From IMG/VR virus record IMGVR_UViG_3300045988_100580, positions 17,594 to 81,593 of that record: DNA of 64,000 nt; one strand, 5' to 3'. The notes beneath the pieces are model-generated. The model did no database searches and was not told the DNA's origin. It saw nothing but the letters and a program-made list of their open reading frames with translations. Every line of letters begins with the position of its first letter. Positions within the stretch are counted from its first letter, which is position 1. This document shows, piece by piece, positions 17,353 to 44,263 of this stretch. The translations under genes and the position numbers were made by a program. The DNA comes from a virus.

Positions 17353-17788
17353 CTTATATATGCACGTATATCAATAACATACAAGAAAAGTTAGATTTTC
17401 ATTGTTTATGAATTATTTTTGTTAAGTTTGCAATATTAGTTTCAGGAAGGGATTATGGAAATAAGGAAAAAGTAAGAACCGAACGTAACTAATAACAGTA
17501 GGAAATGAGAATCAGTACCATCAAACGTAACAACAGCATTCATCTTATGTATAAAAACATTATGAATGATTTAGGTCAATTAAGAACTGTAGTTTCAAAA
17601 TCCTATATTTATAATCTGATACAAAATCAAACCGGATTAAGTATCATAACTATATCCCATGTACTTAACCATACCAAAGAACAGGATACGGATTCTTTGT
17701 GAAAAGCATGTATTTTCATACATTTGTTCGTTCTTTAGTTTTAGTGGGGAAAAGTTTTTCATGGTATTTTAGTTTAGATTAGTTGAGG

Positions 17789-34954: not shown

Positions 34955-35311
34955 TCACATTATTCCTTCTAAATTTACTTTTATAGAACCATTTATGGTT
35001 TTAATGCTCCCATCTATGGTTGAAATCACATCATCTATATCATTTATAATGCCTTCCATGTCATCAACCACCTCCTCCATATCAGTTACAGCCCGATCTG
35101 ATTCCCAATATCTTTCTGAGTCTTGTAACGATTCCGGTATATTATCTCTCGCCTCCGTCTCTTCATCTAAAATCATATCAATATCATCTTTGGCTGAATT
35201 TATGTTGTGCTTTAACTCCGATAACTTTGATTTGATGTATTCAAAATCTGTTTTATACTTATTTGCGTTTTTGATAACATCTGATATTTTTTTTCTTCTC
35301 TTGTTGTTCAT
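34955..35311 (-). CDS. Hypothetical acidic coiled-coil protein, 118 aa
   Basis: ORF track. Confidence 0.45.
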   Translation of the reverse strand: MNNKRRKKISDVIKNANKYKTDFEYIKSKLSELKHNINSAKDDIDMILDEETEARDNIPESLQDSERYWESDRAVTDMEEVVDDMEGIINDIDDVISTIDGSIKTINGSIKVNLEGIM

Positions 35312-36729
35312 GCTTTTATCCTATTATAATATTCGATAATCTTTTCTTTCCTATCTCCCGGTTTTACTGCCATATTCTCAGCCAAGAACCTAAAATACGA
35401 CACCGGTATGTCCTTGAATCTAATTCCTTCATATTTTCCAAACCACATTATTATACTGTCAAGATCGTCTTCTCTCCTACCATCTCCATTCACAGATTTA
35501 AGAGAAGCTGCCCGGCGAAGGATTTCGTCTTTGGTAATAATATCCCCCATCCTTATATTGGATAGAAGCTGATTGCCGGCAAACATACACCAGCCCTTAG
35601 AAGGAAATTGTTCGATCGTTAAATCTTCTATCCGGCCGAAACGCCTCATGTTGTCGCAGCAATCAACTATCAGTGCCTCTTTCTTGTCAGGATGAATACG
35701 AACGCACCTGCCGAGCACCTGGTAATATGTTGAATATGAGAATGTTGGGCGCCCAAACATCACACAATCAAGTTCGGGAAAATCAAATCCGGTAGCAAGC
35801 GTTGAATAATTAAAAACCACCTTCAACTTACCTTCTTTGAAATCGGATATGATTTGTTCTCTTTTCTTTTTGGTTGTTAGCGATGTTACGACGCCGGTTA
35901 TGGCTCCCATCCTGGCATTCATGAACTCTGATATTCTATTACATGATTCGATAGAATCCATGCAAACCAAAATGGCTTTACGCTCGTTCATAAGCTGAAG
36001 AAGACGCTTATAGATAGAGTTGTTTAAGCCATTTCGTACAATACTTTCTTTAATAGATTCGTTGGTGTATTCGGCCCCGGTACTGTTTAACATCAGAGCC
36101 GATTCATCAAAAGACCATCGTTCGTACTTAAGTGGGCACCAAAACCCTTGAGAAGTTAGCTCTTGTATTTGAGTTACGTGAACTATCTTCTTAAAGAAGT
36201 TATGCTCGTCTTTCGTCAGCATATTGAGCTTGCTATAGTTCCCTTCCAGCATGGAACTGTAGGTTCGGAGGCGGCAGGGAGTGGCGGTGAAGCCCAGTAC
36301 CTTCGCCTCTGGAAACCCGTTCATAAACTCCATAAATTCAGAACCTTCTTCAGGAGAATATCCTGAATGACATTCGTCTATCAATAAGGTATCTATCCCT
36401 ATATCCTTCAACCTCGCTACATCTTTCTTTATGCTCTTTAATGTTGCATAAGTCATAGCCGACAGCTCCTTTATACCACATGAAGCAGAATATATAGTAG
36501 GTTTAGAACCGAATGATACGGCCTTTGCATAATTCTGCTCCAGAATCTCTTTTGAGGGCTGTAATACTAATGTCGGTCTATTTATTTCATGTGCTATCTT
36601 GGATATCAGAAGGCTCTTTCCACATCCGCATGGGGCTACGATTATGCCAGGCTTCTTAGATCTTCCTGTAAGAAACTTAAGCCCGGCATCTACTGCCTCT
36701 TTTTGGTAAGGTCTAAGTTCAAAGCCCAT
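35308..36729 (-). CDS. Superfamily-2 DEAD/DEAH-box (type III restriction-res-like) DNA helicase with a small C-terminal FGKYEG…IPVSYFRFL domain
   Basis: Walker A APCGCGKS, motif II DECH, motif VI-like QVLGRCVR. C-terminal MWFGKYEGIRFKDIPVSYFRFLAEN resembles the QSregVF_b-type phage C-terminal module. Confidence 0.8.
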   Translation of the reverse strand: MGFELRPYQKEAVDAGLKFLTGRSKKPGIIVAPCGCGKSLLISKIAHEINRPTLVLQPSKEILEQNYAKAVSFGSKPTIYSASCGIKELSAMTYATLKSIKKDVARLKDIGIDTLLIDECHSGYSPEEGSEFMEFMNGFPEAKVLGFTATPCRLRTYSSMLEGNYSKLNMLTKDEHNFFKKIVHVTQIQELTSQGFWCPLKYERWSFDESALMLNSTGAEYTNESIKESIVRNGLNNSIYKRLLQLMNERKAILVCMDSIESCNRISEFMNARMGAITGVVTSLTTKKKREQIISDFKEGKLKVVFNYSTLATGFDFPELDCVMFGRPTFSYSTYYQVLGRCVRIHPDKKEALIVDCCDNMRRFGRIEDLTIEQFPSKGWCMFAGNQLLSNIRMGDIITKDEILRRAASLKSVNGDGRREDDLDSIIMWFGKYEGIRFKDIPVSYFRFLAENMAVKPGDRKEKIIEYYNRIKA

Positions 36730-37420: not shown

Positions 37421-37590
37421 TGCACCTCTTTTAAGTAGTTAAACCATATATCCTCCAGTCTTTCCTGAAGCTCAAATGCTTTCTTAAAATTCCCGCTTCT
37501 TACAGCAACGTCTCTCATGTATTCTACGTTTATAACCTCCGGATCTTGCCGGTATTTTGTTCTTAACTTTTGAACATCCTCGTATTTCAT
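37417..37590 (-). CDS. Small hypothetical protein, 57 aa (MKYEDVQKLRTKYRQDPEV…), ATGA-coupled to both neighbours
   Basis: Hand translation; not in the track. Confidence 0.35.
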   Translation of the reverse strand: MKYEDVQKLRTKYRQDPEVINVEYMRDVAVRSGNFKKAFELQERLEDIWFNYLKEVQ

Positions 37591-38606
37591 CGCTTTATTT
37601 TTTTAGACGGATCCCAATCTGAAGAGAAAGGGCATTCGTTTTTGTTATGTAATCCAAAGTCACAATAATAACACAGTGCTGACGGGCAGGGCAGCTTGTT
37701 TTGCGAAACAGGCTGGCTTAGGGTGGCACGCCGCTTGCTATACCTGGCTTCTTCTGCTCCCTGGATGTACGCTTGAAATGTTTTTACACTATTATCTTCA
37801 AAATCATACATTTTAGACAAAGTGTCATTTAGCATTTCTATAGATTTTGTTTTACGCTCTTCATCTATCTTAACCTTTTGGTACTGCCTGGTTCTGGTAA
37901 AGAAATAGATGTTCATATCTGGCAGAACTCCACCATATTTTCTATAGATGTAAAATGAATATATAGGATGCTGTAAATTCGTTTCCAACTTCTTAGAATC
38001 AAAAATCTTATTCCCTGATTTCCAATCTATGACATAATGGTGAACTACGTTCTTGCTCTTTATAGCCAGATGAAGGTCTACCGATCCTACTATGTACACA
38101 TGAGTATGAATTACTCCATTTATATCAACAGGCTTAGGAAGACGGTACGGCAGCACAAAATCTTCTTCGACTCCAACTATAGCGCCGTGTCTGATAAGTT
38201 TCTCACAGGGATTAAGATCACTATCAGCTATCATAAACCTATTCCCGTCTTTTTTAAACAGATCCACAATCCAAGCAAGAAGCTCCCCAGATTGTTTCAT
38301 GGCTATCATCATATTTTCCGGTGATAGCCAAGGTATGTCTTCTTGGTAAGCATAGTAACTTATTGCTTCTCCAAGGTCTTTACCAGAAGGCTGTCTTCCG
38401 TTCTTGAAGAAGTGTTCCAGTGTCTTATGAATAACCGTACCATAAGACGTAGCTTCTTGTTTTTCCGTAGACCTTTTGCCCTCCACGTAAGTTTTATACC
38501 ATTTCATTGGACAAGTAAGAAACGTATCTATCTGGGAATAAGATATGGCAAGACGTTTCACACCATTAAACTCCTTATATAGCAAATGCGTTTCCGGGAC
38601 CATCAT
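37587..38606 (-). CDS. PD-(D/E)XK nuclease, Cas4/RecB-like, with a C-terminal 4-Cys (Fe-S type) cluster
   Basis: YSQIDTFLTCPMKWY N-motif, catalytic VIDWKSG (D-x-K), C-terminal CPSALCYYCDFG…NECPF. Confidence 0.7.
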   Translation of the reverse strand: MMVPETHLLYKEFNGVKRLAISYSQIDTFLTCPMKWYKTYVEGKRSTEKQEATSYGTVIHKTLEHFFKNGRQPSGKDLGEAISYYAYQEDIPWLSPENMMIAMKQSGELLAWIVDLFKKDGNRFMIADSDLNPCEKLIRHGAIVGVEEDFVLPYRLPKPVDINGVIHTHVYIVGSVDLHLAIKSKNVVHHYVIDWKSGNKIFDSKKLETNLQHPIYSFYIYRKYGGVLPDMNIYFFTRTRQYQKVKIDEERKTKSIEMLNDTLSKMYDFEDNSVKTFQAYIQGAEEARYSKRRATLSQPVSQNKLPCPSALCYYCDFGLHNKNECPFSSDWDPSKKIKR

Positions 38607-38908
38607 AAGTCATTGTCTTTAAATCCTTCCGGGTAATATACGACATACTTCTTACCGTCTTCTGGTGTCATGGCAAACTGCATGTAGTTATTACGATTAC
38701 GATGCTTGCCATCCAATCCTCGTTTCCAATACAGGATACCGTCTATATCCACATAAGATCGGCCGCGGTCGGCTCTAACCACGTCCGTGTGTAGCAGATA
38801 CCCGTCGGAAGACACAATCCACACTTTATCCCCTTTGCTTAAATAAGATATTCTTTTTCTTACAACAACCCTTTTCTTATTATCCAATACAAATTCCTCG
38901 TCAGTCAT
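38603..38908 (-). CDS. Hypothetical protein; probable start at the internal ATG (MTDEEFVL…) preceded by GAGGAGG. The track extends the ORF to 38962
   Basis: SD-like CCTCCTC at forward 38918-38924, 10 nt upstream of ATG 38908. Confidence 0.45.
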   Translation of the reverse strand: MTDEEFVLDNKKRVVVRKRISYLSKGDKVWIVSSDGYLLHTDVVRADRGRSYVDIDGILYWKRGLDGKHRNRNNYMQFAMTPEDGKKYVVYYPEGFKDNDL

Positions 38909-39115
38909 ACTCTTCATCCTCCTCTTCTTCTGTTTCAAAATCGATTCCATAATACTGATCATAATGCTTGGTCAGTTCTTCTGGTTCTAAATCTTGTCCA
39001 AAATCCATGTTAAAAATATCGTAATTAGTAAAGCACTGTTCCTGCCGGCAGGAAATCTATGAATGCTGCTTTTATTTCTTCAATTAGGCCCAAGTGTAAC
39101 CCTGGGCCATTGTAT

Positions 39116-40816
39116 TTATTTTTTGTCATCTCCTTTTAGCTTCTTTAAAGTATCTGCAATCGGAAGCTGATCAATGACTCCCAATGCCGGAGCGACGGTC
39201 TTAACAACATTGTTAAGGAAATTACCGGTACTGTTCTGACCGCCGTCAAATACCGTGATATTTCCGAGGTTAATGTGCTCAAATGCCTTAACCTGTTCTC
39301 CGGCAATTTCTTTCCACTGATTAACCATCTTGTACTGGATGGCGATCTGAGGATTGGATTCTGCTGCTTCCACCATAGCCTTAAATCCGTCGGCTTCTGC
39401 CATTAACGACTTTTTTTTACCTTCGGCTTCTGCCTCCAGCTTCATCTGAATAGCTTTTGCCTCTGCCTCAGCTTTTGCCAAATGTGCTGCTGCCTCAGCC
39501 TCAGCCCGGCGTTTGATCTTCTCGGCCTCGGCATCAGCTTGCAAGATAGCCTCTTCCTTCTGGGTTTCAGCCGGCACAATCTTTTCAGCCTTAAGCGCAG
39601 CCTGAACTTTCTTAGCCTTAGCTTCTTCCACTTCTTTGTCGGCAAGCTCTTTTGCTGTTTTTACAGCCGCTTCCGATTTAACTTTTTCTTCTCCGGCCTT
39701 CTTCTCTGATTGAGCTTTGATGATCTGTAGTTCTGATACTGACACAGCAACCTCCTTCTGGGCATTGTTGTATCCTATAGACGCATTTTTCTCAGCCTCA
39801 GCCTTCTTAATCTGAGCTTCAGAGTCTTGTATTGCTATAGCTGCTTCCTTGTCAGCTTCAGCCTTATTCTTTCCGACTTCTTCCATCCTTTCAGCCTCGG
39901 CTTTATTTACTTCAAGTTCTGCCTTAGATCTTACGATCGCCGATTCCTTGTCGGTTAAAGTTTTTGCGATAACCGCAGCCCTGTCTCTATCTGCTTGAGC
40001 TACACCAATCTGTTTCTCTTTATCGGTTAAAGCTAAAGCTATTTCTTTTTCTTTCTTCGTTTCAGCTACTATCGTTTCCTTTTCTTTTTCAGTACAAGCA
40101 ATTTGAATCTCTTGTTCTTTTTTGGTATTAGCTACAGCCGTTTCTTTCTCCTTCTGCTGTACAGCAATCTTAATAGCACCCAGCTTCTCCTGTTCTTCGA
40201 TATTAGCCTGTGCTTCGTTCAGAGCCCTACTTTCAGCTTCCTTACCAAGGTTCATAATATAACCGGCTTCGTCTCTAATGTCACTGATGTTGATGTTCAG
40301 GAGGTAAAGACCTAACTTATTAAGCTCGTTATCAATGTTCTTTCTTGCCTTATCCAAAAACTCATCCCTGTCAGAATTAAGTTTTTCGATTGTCATTTCA
40401 GCAATAATCAAACGCATCTGACCGTAAACGATGTCCGTAATAAGATTTTCAGTAGATTCGGTATCCATCCCCAAAAGTCTTTCTGCCGCATTTTGCATGA
40501 TTTCGGGATTTGTACTGATAGCTACTGTAATGGTCGTAGGTACATCTACTCTAATATTCTGAGATGACAAAGCACCGGTAAGCTTGCAATCTATTTGCAT
40601 AGGCTCCATTGACAAAACATCATAGCTTTGAATAATAGGCAAGACAAATGCCGCTCCACCATGATATAATTTTGCCGACTTCTTTTCCCCACCTGTCTTA
40701 CCGTAAACGACCAAGACCTGATTAGGCTTACATCTACGATACCTTGATAAGACTCCGATGATTGTCAAAATAATCACTACAGCTAAGATAGCTGACACGT
40801 ACATGATTGTTGTCAT
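39116..40816 (-). CDS. SPFH/band-7 flotillin-like protein (YqiK/FloT-like)
   Basis: N-terminal TM, SPFH core, then a long Ala/Glu/Lys-rich coiled-coil with EA repeats and a C-terminal conserved tail. Confidence 0.7.
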   Translation of the reverse strand: MTTIMYVSAILAVVIILTIIGVLSRYRRCKPNQVLVVYGKTGGEKKSAKLYHGGAAFVLPIIQSYDVLSMEPMQIDCKLTGALSSQNIRVDVPTTITVAISTNPEIMQNAAERLLGMDTESTENLITDIVYGQMRLIIAEMTIEKLNSDRDEFLDKARKNIDNELNKLGLYLLNINISDIRDEAGYIMNLGKEAESRALNEAQANIEEQEKLGAIKIAVQQKEKETAVANTKKEQEIQIACTEKEKETIVAETKKEKEIALALTDKEKQIGVAQADRDRAAVIAKTLTDKESAIVRSKAELEVNKAEAERMEEVGKNKAEADKEAAIAIQDSEAQIKKAEAEKNASIGYNNAQKEVAVSVSELQIIKAQSEKKAGEEKVKSEAAVKTAKELADKEVEEAKAKKVQAALKAEKIVPAETQKEEAILQADAEAEKIKRRAEAEAAAHLAKAEAEAKAIQMKLEAEAEGKKKSLMAEADGFKAMVEAAESNPQIAIQYKMVNQWKEIAGEQVKAFEHINLGNITVFDGGQNSTGNFLNNVVKTVAPALGVIDQLPIADTLKKLKGDDKK

Positions 40817-40847
40817 AACTTTTAAAATTTAATTGTTGATAAAAAAA

Positions 40848-41342
40848 TTAGATACTTAATTCTCCTTCTTCATATTTTATATTCGCCTTGTCGCCGTTTT
40901 TGTAGGTTTTTCCAGACAAGCATCTTACTCTCATTTGCTCTTGTCTTCCATTTTTCGAAATATTTACCATATAATGATTCTTCCCTGATCTAAATACTAT
41001 CTCCACTTCTCTTCCGTTTAAATCTTCCGGACATTCGTACACCATTTCTTGCTTTAACTTAAGAAGTAACTTATATACGTAAAACAAAACGATAAAGAAA
41101 AACGACCCTATCACAACCCCTACTAAATGGGAACCCGAAAAGTAAGTAGTCCAGCTATATCCAAGAATGAAATGTGTTATGCCCTTGAATGATATGATGT
41201 CCGACAAAGACATGCTTAAATCAGAAGCACTGTCAATGTCAATATCCGTATCCAGATCAGATCCTAATATCGACAACAAAAACTGTATAACAAAAGCAAA
41301 TGACGCTATTAAAGCCATGCATAAAATTATATCACTTCCCAT
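40848..41342 (-). CDS. NfeD-like (YqiJ/YuaF-like) membrane protein, the usual flotillin partner
   Basis: Multiple N-terminal TM segments plus a C-terminal beta-barrel-like soluble domain. Encoded immediately upstream of the flotillin gene, as in yqiJ-yqiK operons. Confidence 0.5.
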   Translation of the reverse strand: MGSDIILCMALIASFAFVIQFLLSILGSDLDTDIDIDSASDLSMSLSDIISFKGITHFILGYSWTTYFSGSHLVGVVIGSFFFIVLFYVYKLLLKLKQEMVYECPEDLNGREVEIVFRSGKNHYMVNISKNGRQEQMRVRCLSGKTYKNGDKANIKYEEGELSI

Positions 41343-41583
41343 ATCCTTCTGTTATTATTTTGTAAACAAGATCAGTCATATCTTTGATGGTCTCCATATC
41401 ATAATCAATAATAACAATATTGAATTTTTATTCCACCATCATTTCAAGTTCAATTTGATCAAGAGAATCTAATCCAAGTTCTTTAAACGTCACATCTTCT
41501 TCATGAACTATATCCATTTCTGAATTAAGAAACTGAGTAATAATTATATCCTCTATAATCTTTCTGATTTCTACTTTTTCCAT
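41332..41583 (-). pseudogene. acpP: Acyl carrier protein gene interrupted by an in-frame TAA (at 41428-41430) where ACPs have Glu: MEKVEIRKIIEDIIITQFLNSEMDIVHEEDVTFKELGLDSLDQIELEMMVE*KFNIVIIDYDMETIKDMTDLVYKIITEGYGK
   Basis: Clear ACP signature LGLDSLD (phosphopantetheine Ser) and an overall 82-codon alignment to E. coli ACP. A single in-frame stop (TAA against GAA) splits it. ATGA overlap with NfeD. Confidence 0.6.
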
Positions 41584-42284
41584 TGCTTTCTAATTTTGTT
41601 AAATAAATACGTTTTTATGTTTTTCAATCTCTCTTTGTCTGTTTCAGAACTTCCGGTAAACAAATAATCCGGATTGCCTTTAGCCGGCGGCGTAGGCAAT
41701 TTAGATACGGCAAACAACCAATCCATTTCCTTATTCTTCTTAGACTCCAAATAAGGCTCGGTAGCGATCTTGAATTTTTCAGCTATTAAGTCGAAGAGCT
41801 TTGAGTTTTTAAGGTTCATATGGACTGAAAAAGCCTGAGAAGGCGGTTTCCATATAAAGTTACATAAGCTCATTGTATAATCTCCTGACTCTGCTATATA
41901 AGATTCCGTTACCTGAAGTATGACCTCTTTCTTGAATGAGGTGTTACCCATAAACCAACACAACCTGGATTCCGCTTCTTTTCTGCTGACACCTATGTCT
42001 TTTGAATACGATTCGTACATTCCTATCATAATCTTCAACGTTTCCAGAACCTCGTCTGTCATCTCCGGTGTCTCTATATAATTCACAAAAGACGTTCCTT
42101 TGTTGGTCAATCTCATCACGCCTGATTTTAATTTCTCAACCAGGCCAAGCTCTATATACCTCCCAGCATCTTTTTCCAGCATGGCTTCGATCATAACCGT
42201 ATCCTTCTGTCTTATAGCAAGAAGATTAGCCAGATCATTAGGAGTCATGTCTGATGCTGCAAGTTGTCTGAAATTGATGTACAT
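41571..42284 (-). CDS. Hypothetical protein, 237 aa
   Basis: ORF track. Confidence 0.5.
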   Translation of the reverse strand: MYINFRQLAASDMTPNDLANLLAIRQKDTVMIEAMLEKDAGRYIELGLVEKLKSGVMRLTNKGTSFVNYIETPEMTDEVLETLKIMIGMYESYSKDIGVSRKEAESRLCWFMGNTSFKKEVILQVTESYIAESGDYTMSLCNFIWKPPSQAFSVHMNLKNSKLFDLIAEKFKIATEPYLESKKNKEMDWLFAVSKLPTPPAKGNPDYLFTGSSETDKERLKNIKTYLFNKIRKQWKK

Positions 42285-43129: not shown

Positions 43130-44263
43130 TTAATACAATGACGGTTCTTCCTTTGTCTCTTGTTCTTGATCTTGATTGTTCGTAACGTCTTCCACAGTAT
43201 AGAGCTTGGGCGGCGTCGGCGGCTGGTTGGGGTTCACGAACTTCGTCCCGCCCTCCCCGTACATCCATCCATGCCCCGGCAGGATCTCTGGGTGGATTGT
43301 ATTAGTAAGCTCTTCCATACTAACTTGCCTTACCTTCAGTATATGATGAAACACCAGTCCGGCTGTCCTGAATGATGTTTTGTTTTCAGTTTTAAACCTA
43401 TCAAGAGTCTGATACCAATCTTTCCCAAATATCATATACTTATCCAGCCCGTACCTACGAGGATTGTGCAAGCCTATCATTAACGTACATAACTGACCCA
43501 GCGTATCAGACTGGTAAAAATCAGAAAGACGCGGAGGCTGCTCTTGTGGGCTTTTTATCCTTCCTTCTATCTCTCTGTTGAATTGTGATATGATGAGGAA
43601 AAATATGTTTTTATATACTAATTTAGCTTCGTTCATAACCGCCACCAAATCATCTATAGCCGACTTAGGATCTAACCCCATTCTTTTTATCAAAGCAATA
43701 TGATCGACTTTAAATATTATAAGACGTTTGTCTTTGTGTTTGGTAGCTATATGATACACAGCCGCCTCAAACTCTTTTACCGTACACGGAGCATCGATGT
43801 ATATTATATTATTCCTGATTTCACCTTGAAGGATTTCAAACATCCTCATCTCTTCCACTGTATTAGAATCTTGCCTTCTTAATATTTCAGGAGCCCGCTT
43901 TTTCATATCCTGGCTCATTCTACGAAGAAGAAGATCTTGAGGATTCATTTCGAACTCGCAATTAACAAGAAAATAATCTTCTGCTTGCGGGTTGATCATC
44001 GGATTCATAACATTTTCCAATATCTTTTGGGCCACATACGATTTACCTACAGATGGCCGGGCTCCTATGGCAATAGCATGCTGAGGGAAAATACCTCCAA
44101 GCAAAGCCTCATCAATATAATCGTATCCGGTTTTAGCGGGGATAAGCTCTCCCCGCCTGTATTTCAAGATATTCTCATACGCCTCTTCCATGACCTGTTT
44201 AGAGGTCTTGAATATCCTTCTTATATCTATCCTATTTGCTATCTCCTCGTGCATTTTTGTCAC
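43130..44263 (-). CDS. dnaB: DnaB-family replicative helicase (C-terminal RecA-like domain)
   Basis: Walker A GARPSVGKS (DnaB has GARPSMGKT), IDHIALI, SQFNREIE (DnaB SQLNR). Confidence 0.75.
   Translation of the reverse strand: MTKMHEEIANRIDIRRIFKTSKQVMEEAYENILKYRRGELIPAKTGYDYIDEALLGGIFPQHAIAIGARPSVGKSYVAQKILENVMNPMINPQAEDYFLVNCEFEMNPQDLLLRRMSQDMKKRAPEILRRQDSNTVEEMRMFEILQGEIRNNIIYIDAPCTVKEFEAAVYHIATKHKDKRLIIFKVDHIALIKRMGLDPKSAIDDLVAVMNEAKLVYKNIFFLIISQFNREIEGRIKSPQEQPPRLSDFYQSDTLGQLCTLMIGLHNPRRYGLDKYMIFGKDWYQTLDRFKTENKTSFRTAGLVFHHILKVRQVSMEELTNTIHPEILPGHGWMYGEGGTKFVNPNQPPTPPKLYTVEDVTNNQDQEQETKEEPSLY

Follow-up and report, generated by a model that had tools for sequence, protein, structure and literature searches.

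A flotillin/NfeD-like gene pair of apparent Bacteroidaceae origin in a variable slot of epsilon crAss-like phages

The replication gene block of an epsilon crAss-like gut phage, represented by a 64,000-nucleotide stretch of IMG/VR record IMGVR_UViG_3300045988_100580 (positions 17,594 to 81,593; hereafter the window), carries a flotillin gene directly preceded by a gene for a small NfeD-like membrane protein (Table 1). Sequence comparisons indicate that the two genes were acquired together, as an intact operon of a Bacteroidaceae host, and that this capture is not a recent one. The pair shows the pattern of a functional, conditionally useful accessory module in which the NfeD-like part is more persistently retained. 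On balance, the evidence leans somewhat towards the captured operon acting as a non-essential membrane-scaffold module that would re-tune the host's own scaffold under some conditions. An adjacent acyl carrier protein (ACP)-like gene is a separate, fast-evolving backbone gene that is paired with a gene for a 237-residue protein and lies outside the flotillin module.

The window shares 98.1% nucleotide identity with GenBank OR575929.1 ("phage csAssE-Sib"), a 151-kb human-gut phage, and its phage belongs to the same epsilon crAss-like species. This record corresponds to crAssE-Sib in the literature, which is placed among the epsilon crAss-like phages in a proposed genus, Epsilonunovirus (Babkin 2024, PMC11054128). 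Its annotation already labels the three genes 'acyl carrier protein', 'transmembrane protein' and 'flotillin family protein', and the crAssE-Sib paper nowhere mentions flotillin, ACP, SPFH, NfeD or membrane (PMC11054128). None of the papers searched links crAss-like phages with flotillin or ACP; an SPFH domain is noted, for a different Crassvirales genus, in a single preprint. The protein families are already known; this host-derived phage accessory operon has not previously been discussed, although its genes are labeled in OR575929.1.

The flotillin/NfeD-like pair and its host counterpart

The flotillin assignment is secure on sequence grounds. The SPFH/Band_7 domain (PF01145, residues 30–211) scores 91.7 bits against a cut-off of 23.6 (7.6e-26, Pfam), and the C-terminal Flot domain (PF15975, residues 450–559) scores 38 bits against a cut-off of 27 (2.1e-9, Pfam). 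Bacterial flotillins and the phage protein align end to end, and its closest solved structures are human flotillin-2 (9bq2) and flotillin-1 (6.8e-23 across residues 30–305). The NCBIfam FloT model (NF058507) matches at 5e-42 with 144.5 bits, under its equivalog cut-off of 700; the phage protein is a flotillin family member and not a FloT equivalog. A predicted N-terminal hydrophobic anchor, MYVSAILAVVIILTIIGVL, occupies residues 5–23 and is followed by SRYRR, as read off the sequence. The long coiled-coil region is rich in Ala, Glu and Lys, with 59, 50 and 46 of these residues, respectively, within residues 196–470.

The product of the upstream gene is accepted as an NfeD2-like protein solely on its modeled structure, gene context and transitive homology, and its architecture fits the definition of short NfeD proteins. 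This class comprises proteins of ~140–180 residues with three N-terminal hydrophobic helices, and its NfeD2 members (YuaF/YqiJ), which are flotillin partners, are poorly conserved (PMC2636767). An AlphaFold2 model built from an alignment of 80 family members reached a predicted local distance difference test score (pLDDT) of 89.6; the single-sequence model (pLDDT 53) was unusable. The alignment-based model predicts transmembrane helices at residues 2–26, 52–69 and 72–96, a disordered acidic loop (D-x-D) and a six-strand C-terminal beta domain (OB-fold), for which Foldseek comparison with the PDB returned generic OB folds only. The family profile matches YuaF weakly (E=0.17), across precisely this C-terminal beta domain, and the NfeD profile (PF01957) matches one of the 80 family members, at 6e-5. 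The 164-residue protein itself has no Pfam match even at E<=10, and none in NCBIfam, PHROG or PADLOC. A viral homologue in BFVD, 35% identical, carries the UniProt name "NfeD-like C-terminal domain-containing protein". A word-indexed homologue search with the 164-residue protein recovered close phage relatives only, and an exhaustive profile search recovered 414 clusters of 160–180-residue proteins.

The first-pass annotation of this DNA, made from the sequence alone, had assigned the three products to the SPFH, NfeD and ACP families. Profile searches bore out the first through Band_7 and Flot matches above cut-offs, returned no NfeD match for the 164-residue protein itself, and placed the ACP above its Pfam cut-off only when the gene was repaired (see below). 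The resemblance that it drew to the B. subtilis yuaF(nfeD2)-floT(yuaG) and E. coli yqiJ-yqiK operons holds, and a direct homologue exists on Bacteroidaceae chromosomes. In both bacterial operons, as in the phage, a short NfeD gene lies directly upstream of a flotillin-type SPFH gene (PMC2636767). YuaF/YqiJ-type NfeD proteins and the phage partner share three hydrophobic helices and, at the C terminus, an all-beta OB domain, and YuaF too has very low sequence similarity to canonical NfeD (PMC2636767). By sequence these operons are only remotely related to the phage pair (YuaF E=0.17; FloT 144 bits versus 700), and unlike the B. subtilis operon the phage pair has neither a sigma-W context nor a yuaI-like third gene. 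The eukaryotic flotillin-1/2 cage (PDB 9bq2, 9l3g) is the best solved match, through the SPFH domain and the start of the coiled coil. Unlike flotillin-1/2, the phage flotillin is a single paralogue with a transmembrane-type anchor.

Full-length matches to the phage flotillin are found on Bacteroides and Phocaeicola chromosomal contigs, including B. xylanisolvens XB1A, P. vulgatus ATCC 8482, B. salyersiae and B. nordii, in a chromosomal scan that used one genome per species. A 165–177-residue homologue of the phage 164-residue protein is encoded immediately upstream of the chromosomal flotillin gene. In the sampled Bacteroidaceae loci with upstream sequence available (29 of 30), the NfeD-like gene lies directly upstream of flotillin, as it also does in the phage and in a sister phage species. 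Gene order and orientation in the Bacteroides/Phocaeicola operon (P. vulgatus ATCC 8482, L099 4430–6689; B. xylanisolvens XB1A, L093) are as in the phage, and the intergenic gap is 25 nt in P. vulgatus and 31 nt in the phage, where both genes share one strand. In the Bacteroidaceae loci sampled there is no ACP gene near the operon, and the flanking genes vary by species. Compared with host flotillins, the phage protein has coiled-coil insertions of 22 and 11 residues and lacks the charged C-terminal tail. Also unlike the host operon, the phage pair sits amid replication genes and is polymorphic in both presence and coiled-coil length.

The capture is not recent, because host identity is limited, synonymous sites (dS) are saturated between the two phage species having the pair, and the GC content at third codon positions (GC3) is phage-like. 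Over aligned columns, the phage flotillin is 65–69% identical to those of Bacteroides or Phocaeicola, compared with 73–74% between the two genera; for the NfeD-like protein the corresponding values are 35–42% and 46–48%. GC3 is 0.40 for the phage flotillin gene and 0.37 for the NfeD-like gene, which is the level of the phage backbone, and 0.53 and 0.51 for the P. vulgatus genes. The possibility of a recent host-derived insertion absent from relatives, raised in the first-pass annotation, thus holds in part: the pair is host-derived and absent from distant relatives, but the transfer is not recent and the sister species has the pair. The captured operon also points, as independent evidence, to a Bacteroidaceae host for this phage.

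Table 1. Features of the flotillin locus and its surroundings (window coordinates)
Feature	Position	Strand	Basis or remarks
Flotillin (SPFH2-type), 566 residues	39116-40816	minus	Band_7 and Flot Pfam matches
NfeD2-like (YuaF/YqiJ-type) protein, 164 residues	40848-41342	minus	Structure model, context, transitive homology
ACP-like gene, 83 codons	41332-41583	minus	In-frame TAA at 41428-41430, codon 52; motif LGLDSLD
237-residue protein, backbone partner of the ACP-like gene	41571-42284	minus	Conserved; no Pfam match
DnaB-like replicative helicase	43130-44263	minus	Pfam DnaB_C 9e-17; context gene
119-residue backbone gene	38603-38962	minus	Downstream boundary of the variable cargo slot
PD-(D/E)XK (Cas4-like) nuclease	37587-38606	minus	Pfam PDDEXK_1 2.5e-21; context gene
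34-codon open reading frame	39025-39129	minus	Overlaps flotillin stop at A6 run; translation MTKNKYNGPGLHLGLIEEIKAAFIDFLPAGTVLY

A variable slot in the replication block

The stretch between the ACP-like and 119-residue genes is a variable cargo slot that holds the flotillin pair in one sub-lineage, because distant epsilon phages hold a C5 DNA methylase gene where the NfeD-like and flotillin genes sit. A survey of related phages, as proposed in the first-pass annotation, found the module in the sister species and not in distant epsilon phages. The sister species, whose backbone proteins are 75–82% identical and which is seen in >200 index blocks of the contig collection, has the order 237-residue gene, ACP (88 residues), NfeD-like (166 residues) and flotillin (568 residues), flanked by DnaB and the nuclease. 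Distant epsilon phages (L122 and L124–L127; backbone 57–69% identical) keep the 237-residue and ACP-like genes and have neither NfeD nor flotillin. Downstream of the ACP-like gene, these flotillin-less phages carry the C5 DNA methylase, a 45–48% identical homologue of the 119-residue gene, and two radical-SAM genes. The 119-residue gene is intact in 81/81 related loci.

Two further features were observed in these relatives. The radical-SAM gene pair lies between the 119-residue gene and the PD-(D/E)XK nuclease (L122 7217–8946, L126 9231–10990, L127 8188–10964). The C5 DNA methylase of L126 (6949–8826) is 625 residues long versus 279 in L127; its extra segment, CFDKETL...VVHN followed by C, is inserted at the catalytic GGSPC motif and reads as an intein.

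Among 50,697 GenBank phage records, only 11 have any match to the phage flotillin, and crAssE-Sib (99.8% identical, 98% of the query) is the only one covering more than about half of the protein. Vibrio phage KIT04 is the second-best match (29% identity over 50% of the query), and seven of the other matching records are ~20 kb or shorter. A broader homologue search gave 6,969 matches at E<=1e-10, both phage and bacterial, and most of the best 120 are on phage-sized contigs. Other phage SPFH genes occur in T4-like RB43, 44RR and Aeh1, in KIT04 ('flotillin family protein') and in a Segatella Crassvirales genus; their products are at most ~30% identical to the phage flotillin.

Presence and absence of the pair were scored in 74 conspecific IMG/VR loci picked through the 237-residue gene, a sample that is hence unbiased for flotillin. 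Flotillin is intact in 48, cleanly absent from 17, stopped or interrupted in five and partial in four, so that 26/74 (35%) lack an intact copy. The NfeD-like gene is intact in 72/74 (97%). Across 81 related loci, the NfeD, DnaB, primase, nuclease, 237-, 200- and 119-residue genes are never disrupted. The ratio of nonsynonymous to synonymous substitution rates (dN/dS), pooled within species with the window as reference, is 0.033 for flotillin, 0.048 for the NfeD-like gene, 0.050 for the 237-residue gene, 0.056 for DnaB and 0.333 for the ACP. In flotillin-less genomes, 12 NfeD-like alleles have dN/dS of 0.06–0.09. The pair is considered conditionally useful and not essential because dN/dS is low where it is present, yet 35% of strains are without intact flotillin.

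Flotillin alleles differ by loss, truncation and shortening, and length variants include proteins P0148, P0153 and P0161. The deletions have several independent junctions, and in one Logan contig an in-frame deletion fuses NfeD(1–80) to the C-terminal ~79 residues of flotillin. Other alleles, found on contigs of up to 151 kb and 39 kb, have in-frame coiled-coil deletions of 85 and 99 residues. Tandem repeats were considered as the source of this length variation; none are present at the DNA level, and the variants are discrete in-frame deletions. There are also nonsense alleles: in L048 and L077/L078 the CAG of Gln codons 405 and 490 has become TAG, and the P0161 flotillin ends after residue 425, immediately before a Gln. 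TAG-to-Gln recoding occurs in other crAss-like lineages, and the flotillin TAG codons may be read through in strains with a suppressor tRNA.

A 362-nt non-coding mobile element is present at the start of the 119-residue gene in L129 (7503–7864), L130, L160, L177, L197 and ~30 other loci. Rfam identifies it as a HEARO (IscB omega-type) RNA (96.8 bits, cut-off 83), and no open reading frame (ORF) adjoins it. The element is missing from the window and crAssE-Sib, its alleles show compensatory hairpin changes, and diverged copies (~78% identical) occur at other sites in L054, L061 and L081. In several strains it adjoins the deletions that remove flotillin.

These patterns bear on three alternatives to a membrane-scaffold module that re-tunes the host scaffold. 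First, the first-pass annotation suggested that the pair anchors phage DNA replication or virion assembly at the membrane, consistent with its position within the replication block between DnaB and the PD-(D/E)XK nuclease. This role fits poorly with flotillin being missing or broken in 35% of conspecific genomes while replication genes are never disrupted. Other epsilon crAss-like phages share the replication genes without the pair, and the recovery of flotillin-less strains as long contigs suggests that they replicate and assemble normally; such an anchor is quite improbable. Second, the frequent deletions and stop codons could mark the pair as neutral, decaying passenger DNA of no function to the phage. 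This is very improbable, as it is contradicted by dN/dS values as low as that of DnaB and by conservation of the pair in two phage species with saturated synonymous sites.

Third, the pair may be cargo for counter-defence or inter-phage competition that shields the inner membrane from abortive-infection effectors or blocks the entry of rival DNA, with a payoff that depends on host or community. In relatives the slot is filled by a C5 DNA methylase, which is typical anti-restriction cargo; the pair shares its orientation with the genes of the replication block; and flotillin is polymorphic in presence within one species yet under strong purifying selection where present. However, PADLOC models gave no match at E<=0.01 for the flotillin, NfeD-like or ACP proteins, literature searches found no described role of flotillin in defence or anti-defence, and the argument from the slot is one of guilt by location only. 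Counter-defence is a possible but doubtful explanation, and supplementing of the host scaffold is preferred.

The surrounding genes form a single minus-strand block that spans 30.7–64 kb of the window. They would be transcribed in the order DnaB, 200-residue ORF, 69-residue ORF, 237-residue ORF, ACP-like, NfeD-like, flotillin, 119-residue ORF and nuclease. The three ORFs of the first-pass annotation were recovered on the minus strand at the same coordinates. Its placement of them between a DnaB helicase and a Cas4-like nuclease is correct for both genes, but neither is an immediate neighbor: three ORFs (200, 69 and 237 residues) separate DnaB from the ACP, and the 119-residue ORF separates flotillin from the nuclease. 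A scan of promoters and terminators gave no signal beyond shuffled expectation. Small ORFs are also called or annotated at the position of the 34-codon ORF in crAssE-Sib and in the sister species. In allele P0091 (594 residues), the peptide of this ORF forms a C-terminal extension of flotillin via the loss of one A; the fusion could reflect sequencing noise, natural variation or frameshifting.

Further downstream, a 473-residue helicase gene (35308–36729) is uninterrupted in the window. In some strains (L024, L025, L067, L038, L039 and L203) the gene is split by ~0.9–1.0 kb insertions at two different sites, after residue 36 and near residues 114–123. These insertions are probably inteins, because the L203 product has a Hom_end_hint domain.

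The ACP-like gene and its 237-residue partner

The ACP-like gene is tightly packed between its neighbors: its start overlaps the end of the 237-residue gene, and there is an 11-nt overlap between its TGA and the start of the NfeD-like gene. The 51-residue ACP ORF (41428–41583) of the first-pass annotation proved to be merely the N-terminal fragment of the 83-codon gene. When repaired, the gene matches PP-binding (PF00550) at 27.7 bits against a cut-off of 20.8, and the truncated ORF scores 18.5 bits, under the cut-off. The repaired product also matches PHROG 5934 ACP (2.9e-11) and PDB ACPs (~7e-7); against NCBIfam ACP models its best match is 1.9e-9, and every one is under its cut-off.

The in-frame TAA is a real segregating nonsense allele, because it recurs in another genome that is not identical (L002); sequencing error is unlikely for the same reason. 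Codon 52 is CAA (Gln) in crAssE-Sib, in which the ACP is intact, and in 78/81 related loci. Recoding of the stop codon was rejected, as every other long ORF stays open under code 11. The window yielded no tRNA, and positions 1–100,000 of crAssE-Sib encode six tRNAs, with no suppressor and a normal TTG anticodon in the tRNA-Gln. Premature stops in relatives are a mixture of TAA, TAG and TGA at Gln, Glu, Lys, Trp and Tyr codons, which argues against recoding. In total the ACP is disrupted in 6/81 loci, by stops at codons 22, 22, 43 and 52 and by interruptions in L046 and L047.

The gene also differs from its surroundings in composition and divergence. Its GC content is 0.276 (GC3 0.238), compared with 0.35–0.42 for its neighbors and ~0.38 for the window. 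In the conspecific L128, the ACP is only 62% identical and the adjacent genes are 92–97% identical. The ACP-like proteins of L122 (5675–5938), L126 (6675–6938) and L127 (6675–6944) have the motif GFDDLD, in which Asp replaces the phosphopantetheine-attachment Ser; this suggests that the backbone gene family has a role independent of the prosthetic group.

The ACP-like gene directly follows the 237-residue gene in five sampled relatives (L120, L122, L126, L127 and L128), whether flotillin is present or not. In L123, the most distant relative, the ORF after the 237-residue gene encodes 65 residues without a DSL motif. The 237-residue gene is intact in 80/80 loci carrying it, and its homologues (36–99% identity) are on phage-sized contigs only. 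The N-terminal ~90 residues are weakly winged-helix-like (eS19 C-terminus, E=0.04; HTH_45, 1e-3 in 2/26 members). The 237-residue protein was considered as a phosphopantetheinyl transferase (PPTase) or acyltransferase; there was no signal for either, with the weak winged-helix matches instead. The ACP-like gene is placed outside the flotillin module because its pairing with the 237-residue gene persists in epsilon phages without flotillin, and because the host operon has no ACP.

The first-pass annotation took the neighboring ACP as a hint of lipid chemistry, and a coupling of such ACP-dependent chemistry with the flotillin/NfeD scaffold would suit the adjacency of the genes, the overlap of the ACP stop with the NfeD start, and the DSL serine, which is kept in the window species and in the sister species. 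This coupling is now largely refuted and hardly credible. The gene has a nonsense allele in the window, further disrupted copies and a high dN/dS; its partner is the 237-residue gene, with which it occurs without flotillin and with Asp at the attachment site; and the host operon lacks an ACP. In addition, the whole-genome annotation of crAssE-Sib includes no PPTase, acyltransferase or lipid-related enzyme; host enzymes might load the phage ACP instead.

Possible roles in infection

The data disfavour a replication anchor, ACP-linked chemistry and junk DNA. Supplementing of the host scaffold is the simplest model, because the host has a homologous pair and the NfeD-like gene persists without phage flotillin. 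Under this model, an epsilon crAss-like ancestor would have captured the NfeD-like/flotillin operon as a unit from a Bacteroidaceae chromosome into the cargo slot of the replication block. Both proteins would insert in the host inner membrane, flotillin by its N-terminal hydrophobic anchor and the NfeD-like protein by its three transmembrane helices. Flotillin may then use its SPFH domain and long coiled coil to oligomerise, forming a scaffold of the cage or microdomain kind, and the OB domain of the NfeD-like protein would join this assembly, as FloT recruits NfeD2 in B. subtilis. FloT and NfeD2 have been described to co-assemble in B. subtilis (PMC4928834), and SPFH2 and NfeD2 genes to be inherited together and transferred laterally (PMC2636767). 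The phage could thereby supplement or re-tune the homologous flotillin/NfeD scaffold of the host during infection, and the payoff may be improved membrane integrity or organisation, conditional and not essential. The NfeD-like protein probably works also with host flotillin, because it is kept and constrained in strains without phage flotillin.

Several points weigh against this model. This phage has not been cultured. The purifying selection seen on NfeD where flotillin is missing could reflect divergence older than the deletions, which would have spread later by recombination. The survival of NfeD may be partly geometric, as many deletions begin at the 119-residue side by the HEARO element and reach flotillin first. 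Finally, deletion of nfeD2 in B. subtilis has no visible phenotype (PMC4928834), so NfeD would not be expected to have a strong role by itself.

A related and rather unlikely explanation is that the phage NfeD-like protein is the key effector and docks on the flotillin cages of the host, the phage flotillin being an optional, re-tuned co-subunit with a longer coiled coil. The host scaffold would then be repurposed, for example against membrane-damaging abortive-infection effectors or competing phages. This would account for the retention of NfeD in 97% of strains and the loss of flotillin in 35%. If true, NfeD docking on host flotillin would be the first case of a virus taking over a flotillin microdomain of bacteria.

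Alternatively, the pair may control a host membrane protease such as FtsH in the manner of HflK/C, so that the stability of phage or host regulators would shift the balance of persistence versus lysis. SPFH proteins associate with FtsH (the YbbK case, PMC2636767), crAssE-Sib encodes a repressor and anti-repressors (PMC11054128), and a 2026 preprint raises this idea for an SPFH domain in another Crassvirales genus. However, the phage protein is of the flotillin and not the HflK/C type, and the NfeD-like protein has no protease domain. In B. subtilis, FloT and FtsH do not share a microdomain beyond milliseconds and colocalise rarely (PMC4928834). FtsH control is decidedly unlikely, and a conditionally useful module that re-tunes the host scaffold is still favoured.

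Epsilon crAss-like phages abound in the human intestine and have never been cultured. The attractive link between ACP and flotillin in these phages is corrected here, the ACP-like gene being a fast-evolving gene of the backbone. Co-circulating strains with flotillin, without flotillin, with a truncated flotillin or with a shortened coiled coil form a natural allelic series that can be directly compared. They represent a natural experiment on the function of bacterial flotillin/NfeD assemblies, for which B. subtilis nfeD2 has no known phenotype (PMC4928834).

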